Source: Eledone cirrhosa
Taxonomy: Eukaryota
DNA: 64,000 nucleotides
NCBI GenBank assembly: GCA_964016885.1
Contig: OZ024743.1
Location: forward strand, 339,202,001 to 339,266,000
Direction: 5' to 3'
Shown here: piece after piece, positions 8,811-10,950 of the stretch
Numbering within the stretch: the stretch's first letter is position 1
Layout of the letters: every line of letters starts with the position of its first letter
The notes under the pieces: model-generated
The model's database searches: none
Seen by the model: only the letters and a program-made list of their open reading frames with translations
Told to the model about the DNA's origin: nothing
Translations under genes and position numbers: made by a program

Positions 8811-10950
8811 GAAATTAGAAATTGGAATAAATGCTCTGAAATAGCGATCAGTTCCTGTACACAGCTAAGTATTCTATAAGTCTCTAGCTGTGTCATTCTC
8901 GATAAAAGCACTGGATATGTAGTCCTGATGATTTCTAACAAGAATGAAACGCGTAGATTACTTCCCTTGCTTTTATCGAGAATCTAATTGTAATACGTGA
9001 CGTATTCTATTCTATAGCGATTAGGTCTTCAAAATGTTTATTATAAACATACAGAATATTTTCGAATATTCTATGTCTATATTCACATATATATCGCTAT
9101 TTCAGAGCATTTATTCCAATTTCTAATTTCTGCCGGACCGGCAACCGCTCTTTCAAACCAGTTCCTGTACACAGCTAAGTATTCTATAAGTCTCTAGCTG
9201 TGTCATTCTCGATAAAAGCACTGGATATGTAGTCCTGATGATTTCTAACAAGAATGAAACGCGTAGATTACTTCCCTTGCTTTTATCGAGAATCTAATTG
9301 TAATACGTGACGTATTCTATTCTATAGCGATTAGGTCTTCAAAATGTTTATTATAAACATACAGAATATTTTCGAATATTCTATGTCTATATTCACATAT
9401 ATATCGCTATTTCAGAGCATTTATTCCAATTTCTAATTTCTGCCGGACCGGCAACCGCTCTTTCAAACCAGTTCCTGTACACAGCTAAGTATTCTATAAG
9501 TCTCTAGCTGTGTCATTCTCGATAAAAGCACTGGATATGTAGTCCTGATGATTTCTAACAAGAATGAAACGCGTAGATTACTTCCCTTGCTTTTATCGAG
9601 AATCTAATTGTAATACGTGACGTATTCTATTCTATAGCGATTAGGTCTTCAAAATGTTTATTATAAACATACAGAATATTTTCGAATATTCTATGTCTAT
9701 ATTCACATATATATCGCTATTTCAGAGCATTTATTCCAATTTCTAATTTCTGCCGGACCGGCAACCGCTCTTTCAAACCAGTTCCTGTACACAGCTAAGT
9801 ATTCTATAAGTCTCTAGCTGTGTCATTCTCGATAAAAGCACTGGATATGTAGTCCTGATGATTTCTAACAAGAATGAAACGCGTAGATTACTTCCCTTGC
9901 TTTTATCGAGAATCTAATTGTAATACGTGACGTATTCTATTCTATAGCGATTAGGTCTTCAAAATGTTTATTATAAACATACAGAATATTTTCGAATATT
10001 CTATGTCTATATTCACATATATATCGCTATTTCAGAGCATTTATTCCAATTTCTAATTTCTGCCGGACCGGCAACCGCTCTTTCAAACCAGTTCCTGTAC
10101 ACAGCTAAGTATTCTATAAGTCTCTAGCTGTGTCATTCTCGATAAAAGCACTGGATATGTAGTCCTGATGATTTCTAACAAGAATGAAACGCGTAGATTA
10201 CTTCCCTTGCTTTTATCGAGAATCTAATTGTAATACGTGACGTATTCTATTCTATAGCGATTAGGTCTTCAAAATGTTTATTATAAACATACAGAATATT
10301 TTCGAATATTCTATGTCTATATTCACATATATATCGCTATTTCAGAGCATTTATTCCAATTTCTAATTTCTGCCGGACCGGCAACCGCTCTTTCAAACCA
10401 GTTCCTGTACACAGCTAAGTATTCTATAAGTCTCTAGCTGTGTCATTCTCGATAAAAGCACTGGATATGTAGTCCTGATGATTTCTAACAAGAATGAAAC
10501 GCGTAGATTACTTCCCTTGCTTTTATCGAGAATCTAATTGTAATACGTGACGTATTCTATTCTATAGCGATTAGGTCTTCAAAATGTTTATTATAAACAT
10601 ACAGAATATTTTCGAATATTCTATGTCTATATTCACATATATATCGCTATTTCAGAGCATTTATTCCAATTTCTAATTTCTGCCGGACCGGCAACCGCTC
10701 TTTCAAACCAGATCCTGTACACAGCTAAGTATTCTATAAGTCTCTAGCTGTGTCATTCTCGATAAAAGCACTGGATATGTAGTCCTGATGATTTCTAACA
10801 AGAATGAAACGCGTAGATTACTTCCCTTGCTTTTATCGAGAATCTAATTGTAATACGTGACGTATTCTATTCTATAGCGATTAGGTCTTCAAAATGTTTA
10901 TTATAAACATACAGAATATTTTCGAATATTCTATGTCTATATTCACATAT
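8811..10950 (+). mobile_element. Candidate non-LTR retrozyme: 310-bp hammerhead-containing tandem array (~6.8 units) with a 38-bp inverted 5' piece
   Basis: Units start at 8851, 9161, 9471, 9781, 10091, 10401 and 10711. Each has a type I hammerhead. 8811-8848 is the reverse complement of the unit segment ATCGCTATTTCAGAGC...AATTTC. The array is embedded in (AT)n on both sides and has no real ORF. Confidence 0.85.
8895..8983 (+). ncRNA. Type I hammerhead ribozyme (first of 7 copies, period 310 nt)
   Basis: Helix I is GTAGTC(8919-24)/GATTAC(8956-61), extended by a perfect 16-bp ATTCTCGATAAAAGCA/TGCTTTTATCGAGAAT. Core CTGATGA is at 8925-31. Helix II is TTCT-AACA-AGAA. GAAA is at 8946-49. Helix III is the palindromic ACGCGT. 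The GUA cleavage triplet ends at 8955. Confidence 0.88.

Follow-up and report, generated by a model that had tools for sequence, protein, structure and literature searches.

Animal retrozymes are tandem arrays of non-coding repeats of 150-450 bp with a GC content below 50% and one type I hammerhead ribozyme per unit, with Penelope-like elements (PLEs) named as strong candidates for their mobilization (Cervera and de la Pena 2020, PMC7229834). This dependence has also been argued from the co-occurrence of the two kinds of element and from pLTR homology, and local tandem amplification after insertion has been proposed (Li et al. 2026, bioRxiv 10.64898/2026.07.22.740005). In the available text of the latter work, the words "inversion," "tail," and "junction" do not appear.

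PLEs leave unusual products when they integrate, among which inverted pLTRs and short 3' extensions are regarded as peculiarities of the group (Goubert 2022, PMC8969392). Copies of EN+ PLEs are inverted and 5'-truncated, often bearing a tail of 30-40 bp that is confined to one end (Craig 2021, PMC8557442). A purified Poseidon PLE protein nicks and extends both strands of AT-rich DNA, starting at two sites inside the RNA between which the tail lies, a property described as unique to PLEs; the protein is predicted to act as a dimer, hammerhead cleavage is not needed, and no strand difference in start site was seen in vitro (Frangieh 2024, PMC11167929). Non-autonomous Chlamys elements such as MRC1 form multicopy head-to-tail insertions whose 3' ends generally resemble those of their autonomous partners, and Chlamys-type PLEs have no canonical hammerheads (Craig 2021, PMC8557442).

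A retrozyme array with an inverted stub

The array described here lies in a 64,000-nt stretch of Eledone cirrhosa DNA (contig OZ024743.1, positions 339,202,001-339,266,000), hereafter called the window, whose relevant features are listed in Table 1. The repeat unit and the family that it defines are called R1. The original prediction held that the array begins with an inverted fragment, and that the unit segment copied in this fragment would follow almost directly after the array's 3' end. Both statements proved accurate. The stub at 8810-8848 matches the reverse complement of unit 245-283 at 39 of 39 positions (E 1e-12, blastn within the window), and its sequence begins 2 nt beyond the array's end at 10950, which is unit position 242 and falls in the site A class of ends defined below. 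The A at 8810 is the first base of the 39-nt stub, or possibly a base of the AT tract, which extends for 4.3 kb beside the stub. At 8849 the stub joins unit position 1 bluntly, with neither overlap nor insert. Units 1-6 are identical, and the array's sole mismatch lies in unit 7 before its end.

Table 1. Features of the window that bear on the R1 insertion and on the elements compared with it
Feature	Position	Strand	Remarks	Basis
Left (AT)n-rich tract	4466-8809		Insertion target	TRF and sequence
Arm B, inverted	8810-8848	-	39 nt; unit positions 245-283	Sequence comparison
Arm A, R1 array	8849-10950	+	310-bp retrozyme unit repeated head-to-tail 6.78 times, from unit 1 to 242	TRF and alignment
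Type I hammerhead motif	8917-8963	+	Recurs every 310 bp	Motif scan; Rfam score below gathering
Site A, first R1 unit	9075-9094	+	Unit 227-246 (modes 237, 246); TA-rich; putative RT start	89 A ends
Site B, first R1 unit	9110-9131	+	Unit 262-283 (mode 272); putative second RT start	89 B ends
Right (AT)n-rich tract	10951-11821			TRF
PLE1, Hydra-like	27119-30378	+	Comparison; inverted arm 27119-27358; tail ~180 nt, two copies only	
PLE2, Hydra-like, 5'-truncated	31159-33500	+	Comparison; inverted arm 31159-31427; tail ~90 nt; hammerhead core 33409	
PLE3, Neptune-like	47076-54118	-	Comparison, candidate partner; frame 47638-51486; pLTR 47076-47545	
Tx1-like LINE	54116-58065	+	Serves as negative control; (AT)n at 3' end	Sequence comparison, end census

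R1 has structural features by which retrozymes are recognized: an AT-rich, non-coding tandem unit of 310 bp with a type I hammerhead motif in each unit, present in many dispersed copies. No open reading frame of at least 150 aa occurs within the array. A motif scan outlines a hammerhead with a 6-bp stem I, CUGAUGA, stem II, GAAA, and a palindromic stem III of ~1 bp, and places the GUA cleavage triplet at unit 105-107. Because the motif lies on the + strand of each unit, this strand is taken as the sense strand, and because stem III is palindromic and only ~1 bp long, the hammerhead is predicted to cleave as a dimer. The Rfam model Hammerhead_HH9 matches the unit with E=0.058, which is under its gathering score; at gathering score, Rfam gives no match anywhere in the window. 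The fold of the unit is better than those of 100 of 100 shuffled sequences (z -4.4).

The exact 32-mer of the R1 hammerhead has 4,507 matches in the genome. Along contig C1, the first 170 Mb hold about 103 groups of R1 ends, from which an estimated ~1,800 insertions can be extrapolated for the whole genome (3.0 Gb). Singleton differences amount to 0.03% of bases, and the family is therefore judged to be very young. Seven of the 11 recurrent fixed variants fall inside the 47-nt hammerhead (unit 73, 74, 81, 84, 91, 92, and 109); when examined by eye, all are fold-preserving, affecting a loop, a free core position, a wobble, or an added pair, and none touches an invariant core base. At least 10 other hammerhead types were seen in the sampled loci (L085, L089, L108, L113, L137, L139, and others), some of them in tandem repeats of 470-480 bp. 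The window holds further repeats: a tandem repeat of ~500 bp with 213-bp sub-duplications at 191-4171, in which neither R1 similarity nor a hammerhead was found, and three Tx1-like copies at 12008-24000 on the minus strand, arranged head-to-tail with short (ATAG)n between them.

Every two-armed insertion pairs one A end with one B end

R1 insertions were located with sequence patterns in which each end class is followed by TA, which gave 611 A ends and 631 B ends on the forward strand. The first 170 Mb of C1 contain 77 A and 75 B ends that form 49 back-to-back pairs within 20 kb, and all 49 are A+B, with no A+A and no B+B pair. Another sample consisted of the first ten R1 arrays listed on C1, picked regardless of their ends. 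Eight of the nine scorable arrays are two-armed, all A+B, with outward-pointing 3' ends at unit 233-246 (A) and 272-274 (B); one is single-armed, and the tenth is broken by an N gap.

The full census covers all listed ends in that stretch of C1 together with two arrays found through their hammerheads and the window copy, giving 106 insertions. Left out were L046 (a duplicate of L093), L213 (the far side of the gap in L033), and five short matches, of which four belong to other families and one is a 45-bp fragment; a few pieces of other families were trimmed. L046 and L093 (C1, 56.25-56.27 Mb) are one insertion shown twice beside an N gap, probably by assembly duplication. Two insertions were unscorable, and a script classed the remaining 104 as 89 two-armed and 15 single-armed. 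Every two-armed insertion (89/89) combines one A and one B end, with the 3' ends pointing outward. The single-armed copies comprise 11 with an A end and four with a B end, although one of them, L043, has by eye an 11-nt B arm.

The ends themselves are sharply placed. A ends lie at unit 237 (45 cases), 246 (29 cases), or elsewhere within 227-242, and B ends at 272 (62 cases), 274 (10 cases), or elsewhere within 262-279, with 283 in the window copy alone. The distance from A to B, which constitutes the tail, is thus ~35 nt. TA is found on both flanks in 88 of 104 insertions, a count that is partly inflated because the search patterns required TA at one end. A public sequencing run of another sample, X2, contains R1 ends that pass into TA behind unit 246 (nine contigs) and unit 277 (one contig); its loose ends map behind window positions 9094 (site A) and 9125 (site B).

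The original prediction had stated that it would fail if other copies lacked inversions and instead carried LINE-like tails or TSDs. Among the collected copies, 89 of 104 have inversions, and none of the 89 two-armed copies has an A-run at its outer end, meaning that no poly(A) is present. Clear TSDs were found in L034 (15 bp) and L032 (~34 bp), whereas the other 14 matches reported by the script are mostly matches within AT tracts. TSDs are a weak test in this setting because the clear examples sit on otherwise typical two-armed copies.

The inner ends of the arms show no comparable order. Among 83 simple cases, the inner junctions comprise 40 with microhomology, 14 that are blunt, and 29 with inserts, and the inner ends are scattered over the unit. 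Both arms are longer than one unit in 66 of the 83. The hammerhead cut shows no excess of inner ends (four against 3.5 expected), and the two inner ends of an insertion are unrelated to each other (16 of 83 within 30 nt, against 16.3 expected). B arms shorter than 60 nt occur in two of the 83 cases, and arms shorter than that of the window copy are known from L074 (19 nt) and L043 (11 nt, by eye). The position of the window stub directly after the array's end was considered as a clue to mechanism and rejected, given that B arms stop at unit 237-250 in only six of 83 cases, where 3.7 are expected (p=0.17); the adjacency follows instead from the extreme shortness of the B arm. An excess of inner ends at unit position 1 is likewise not claimed (5/181, Bonferroni p=0.10), as this position was itself set from the window copy. 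A broader cluster at unit 309-1 (7/181 against 1.8 expected, uncorrected p=0.002; window 8849, L050, L054, L066, L085, L205, L040, and L041) possibly marks a transcription start or an RT pause. In L037, 272 bp of unrelated sequence (3099-3370) is caught between the arms, with no match in the fetched loci.

Control families

The three PLEs of the window had also been said to begin with inverted copies of their 3' regions. For PLE1 this is correct as stated (27119-27358 against 30200-29955, 95%). The inversion of PLE2 is likewise real (31241-31427 against 33515-33328, 94%), but its arm extends farther than claimed, to ~31159, and carries the tail. PLE3 is inverted with 99.9% identity (51838-54118 against 49450-47170), but the inverted arm ends 34 nt short of the A end of PLE3; a Tx1 copy begins at 54116, where this arm stops. 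The (AT)n setting named for all four elements is not a mark of PLEs, for the 3' end of Tx1 at 58065 also runs into (AT)n.

Two autonomous PLE families obey the same pairing rule as R1. In PLE4, a Hydra-clade family found outside the window, 18 back-to-back pairs comprise 16 A+B and two unclassified (16/16 classifiable). The 11 pairs of the PLE3 family comprise eight A+B by script, two A+B by eye, and one that is unscorable (10/10 classifiable). Among LINEs, the end census and the 3'-end comparison covered Tx1. None of the first 100 Tx1 3' ends has a back-to-back neighbor within 20 kb, whereas 14 have neighbors in the same direction. The R1 unit resembles the Tx1 3' end no more than shuffled sequences do. 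R1 therefore lacks the marks of a LINE-dependent SINE, having two fixed 3' ends, no A-runs, and no match to the Tx1 3' end.

Two sister retrozyme families, R2 (L061:300-780, L120, L121, and L125) and R3 (L146-L175), resemble R1 in the priming region and have A and B ends homologous to those of R1. The unit of R3 measures 314 bp; this family has 1,411 exact matches to its tail and a hammerhead unlike that of R1, and its priming region matches that of R1 better than any of 1000 shuffles (0/1000 as good). The family is older than R1, and inspection of 30 loci by eye gave seven clear A+B insertions, one A+A (L174), and several that are unclear.

The two arms probably share a template

Among the insertions, 72 have at least 250 bp in each arm and could be compared by haplotype. 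The majority haplotype is common to both arms in 64 of the 72, against 490 of 5112 comparisons between insertions, with 29 haplotypes in the set. In 18 of the 72, a variant absent from the rest of the sample is fixed on both arms; such "private" variants were judged on 72 insertions out of a possible ~1,800 and may stem from sources outside the sample. Variants fixed in all units of these 18 hint at a monomer bottleneck.

Three insertions are more informative. In L187, the two outer units of each arm belong to one haplotype and the inner units to a second, and in L057 and L098 a variant is present only in the outermost occurrence, again on both arms, such that in all three the ordered variants match when counted from both outer ends. 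This suggests a single unit of a single RNA as the template of both arms. To produce such patterns, the two arms must begin in one and the same unit of a template whose units are ordered; neither a pure monomer circle nor twin priming of the L1 type fits this. Copying from the same unit does not hold for every insertion, because the arms of L066 and L208 differ in variant pattern, although L208 was not confirmed on recheck and L066 is compatible with consecutive copying. Given the absence of enrichment at the hammerhead cut and the ordered arms of some copies, linear multimers and monomer circles may both serve as templates. Long arms (L197-L198, with 46 units; L035-L036; L176) display recurring variant pairs at spaced units, which suggests either multimeric templates or later unequal exchange.

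How the insertion was probably made

The array and its stub very probably constitute one insertion of a non-LTR retrozyme, likely written into (AT)n by a PLE RT/GIY-YIG protein that primed on both target strands. Mobilization in trans by a PLE, as had been proposed for this array, is strongly supported, in that all 89 two-armed copies are A+B and the PLEs obey this rule while Tx1 does not; the haplotype common to both arms adds to this case. R1 has the characters of EN+ PLE copies, namely an inverted 5'-truncated copy (89/104), a ~35-nt tail (89/89 A+B), and a TA target (88/104), the last being shared with Tx1. As a counterpoint, the window's B end at 283 lies outside the 262-279 range of the other 88 copies, the script finds a single arm in 15 of 104 insertions, R3 includes one A+A case by eye, no sampled PLE shares the R1 priming region, and the Poseidon protein started at the same sites on either strand in vitro (PMC11167929).

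A plausible sequence of events can be outlined. Transcription of R1 arrays would yield multimeric and probably circular RNA, whose A-B region would be bound by a PLE protein, probably as a dimer. The protein would nick both strands of (TA)n, after which site B might serve for priming by one 3' end and the TA-rich site A for priming by the other, with both sites usually lying in a single unit of a single RNA. Each cDNA would terminate at random, and end joining would unite the two inner ends. For the window copy, the cDNA primed at B presumably halted after 39 nt, leaving an arm that is little more than the tail, while the A-primed cDNA would have run for 2.1 kb.

A more specific form of this scheme treats PLE integration as target-primed reverse transcription that is both double and coupled: a dimer acting on one RNA would prime the two target strands at two fixed sites separated by the length of the tail, and the same units would be copied into both arms with strand displacement. 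This proposal could equally prove right or wrong. Recognition of R1, R2, and R3 would then be structural or loose, as their common priming region has no match to any sampled PLE. If true, coupled double priming would account for two traits of all EN+ PLEs, the inverted arm and the tail on one side only. The same machinery might instead copy each arm from a separate RNA, with ordered sites such that one strand uses B and the other anneals at the TA-rich A. This is possible, and we hold it as a tentative second reading. It would accommodate the differing arms of L066 and L208, common haplotypes are also expected if one source locus dominates a cell's expression, and both arms exceed one unit in most insertions, which from a single RNA would need strand displacement. 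Against separate RNAs stand the same-unit starts on ordered multimers that L187, L057, and L098 require, and the 18 insertions with a variant unique in the sample and fixed on both arms.

Readings that dispense with PLEs are considerably weaker. In one of them, a LINE such as Tx1 or RTE would have mobilized R1, and the inversion would stem from L1-type twin priming: Tx1 is abundant and also inserts beside (AT)n, and the window copy and L066 have twin-priming geometry, with a B arm that stops near site A. However, no Tx1 end in the census has a back-to-back partner, R1 lacks poly(A), B arms have no preference to stop at A, both outer ends are fixed sites, and the arms copy identical units in the three informative cases. 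The two end censuses, of Tx1 and R1, largely refute mobilization by a LINE, which we consider extremely improbable. The window stub might alternatively have arisen by local template switching in the DNA or by misassembly at the border of a long (AT)n tract. This is very unlikely, even though the B end at 283 is unique among 89, B arms this short are rare, and the stub adjoins a 4.3-kb AT tract. The window's own junction does not appear in four sequencing contig sets, which can show presence only. The stub's orientation, position, and end class obey the family rule, even shorter B arms are known, and although the next farthest B end is at 279, the end at 283 corresponds to the 276 end of L051 displaced by a 7-nt direct repeat within the unit. 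The window insertion is real and ordinary for its family.

The search for an autonomous partner

The original prediction paired the array with the PLEs of the window, and this pairing finds no backing in their sequences. The R1 unit resembles the PLE1-3 termini no more than shuffled sequences do, and its priming region is shuffle-like in comparison with those of PLE2, PLE3, and PLE4 (209, 781, and 460 of 1000, respectively), so that 3'-end similarity to an autonomous family is lacking in these comparisons. Tails differ as well, from ~35 nt in R1 to ~60 in PLE3, ~68 in PLE4, and ~90 in PLE2, with a still longer one in PLE1 (Table 1). The suggestion that array and PLEs share hammerheads is correct in kind but not in detail. 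No canonical hammerhead was found in PLE1, those of PLE3 lie at 47300, 51592, and 53938, and the closest to R1 is that of PLE4, outside the window, which is identical in 25 of 28 columns of the core and stem II. With regard to stem II, PLE3 scores 17 and PLE4 scores 43. The hammerhead is nevertheless a weak marker of partnership, because R3 keeps the R1 priming region but differs in hammerhead.

Classification of the PLEs relied on motifs judged by eye, and Pfam gave no match for the three window PLE ORFs. PLE1, PLE2, and PLE4 have the characters of Hydra elements (C-terminal GIY-YIG, DKT, an RWK-like motif, a CxCx5C linker, and no CCHH), a motif set that has been described for a group that inserts into (TA)n (Craig 2021, PMC8557442). 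All of these motifs are present in PLE4, with the RWR form, whereas PLE1 lacks the N-terminus and PLE2 retains EN only. The earlier Naiad label is thus replaced, as PLE1 and PLE2 look like members of the Hydra clade by their C-terminal EN, DKT, and CxCx5C. PLE3 has a C-terminal GIY-YIG, CCHH, and a CX2-5CxxC finger, the last of which is also carried by Nematis (Craig 2021, PMC8557442). Other PLE families were seen at L089:3000-4300, L033, and L040, one possibly with EN ahead of RT (Naiad-like, by eye) and one a second Neptune-like family.

Among the candidate partners, PLE3 ranks first in both youth and abundance. Its frame, thought to be a 1279-aa ORF in need of repair, is in fact open over 1282 codons from stop to stop, its arms are 99.9% identical, and a 38-mer of its pLTR has 20,144 exact matches; it also follows the A+B rule and targets TA. 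Its unrelated stem II, different tail, and lack of sequence similarity to R1 nevertheless make this partnership doubtful. PLE4 or a close relative is somewhat less doubtful, though still unlikely when taken by itself. This family was found through the similarity of its hammerhead to that of R1. It lies at L133:7738-5465 (minus) and also in L131, L132, L135, L136, and L141, with a canonical hammerhead in its pLTR. In its favor are this hammerhead, an open 758-codon frame (L133), 12,367 exact hammerhead matches, the A+B rule, and the insertion of Hydra elements into (TA)n; against it are its tail, its priming region, the combination in R3 of the same priming region with another hammerhead, and arms that are only 83-98% identical in five sampled insertions. 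Many PLE4 copies are very small, consisting of two-armed stubs in which the cut falls directly at the hammerhead.

The probability left by these two candidates falls to a PLE family outside the sample. In the window and the fetched loci L031-L145, in which the PLE families of the genome are sampled in part, no PLE shares the R1 priming region. No autonomous element was recognized in the 30 R3 loci, and neither chimeric arms nor the insert in L037 revealed a partner.

Comparison with known systems

R1 is a new retrozyme family that behaves as a non-autonomous PLE, having the structural features of one except for 3'-end similarity to a partner. The dependence of retrozymes on PLEs has already been proposed in print, and the value added here lies in the junction evidence and in the A+B coupling. 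Until now the mobilizer of retrozymes has been argued from co-occurrence and from hammerhead or pLTR likeness, whereas the R1 junctions provide direct genomic evidence. Any account of the undefined PLE step that yields inverted arms and tails must accommodate strict A+B coupling and the copying of the same unit into both arms. A 310-nt RNA with mapped starts and two natural candidate proteins with open frames would make this step testable in an existing in vitro assay. A search of titles and abstracts, a scope beyond which lie supplements and most subscription journals, found none on two-armed A+B retrozyme insertions or on per-event coupling of start sites.

R1 resembles the animal non-LTR retrozymes in unit size, in being non-coding, in its hammerhead, and in a short helix III like that of the dimeric amphibian motifs (PMC7229834). 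The description of animal retrozymes available in that source mentions no two-armed insertions whose A and B ends are fixed. In contrast to the retrozymes of Li et al. (2026, 10.64898/2026.07.22.740005), as far as their available text describes them, R1 is dispersed, two-armed, and apparently inserted as multimers, and has no pLTR homology beyond a hammerhead stem. Like the Chlamys elements exemplified by MRC1, R1 is non-autonomous and arranged head-to-tail, but it has a hammerhead and no 3'-end partner among the sampled PLEs (PMC8557442). The closest likeness is to EN+ PLEs, with which R1 shares the inverted 5'-truncated copy, the tail at one end, the AT-rich target, and two start sites (PMC8557442, PMC11167929). 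It differs from them in its non-coding template, and it adds a strict coupling of one A with one B end and arms copied from the same unit, neither of which is stated in the available portions of these two accounts.
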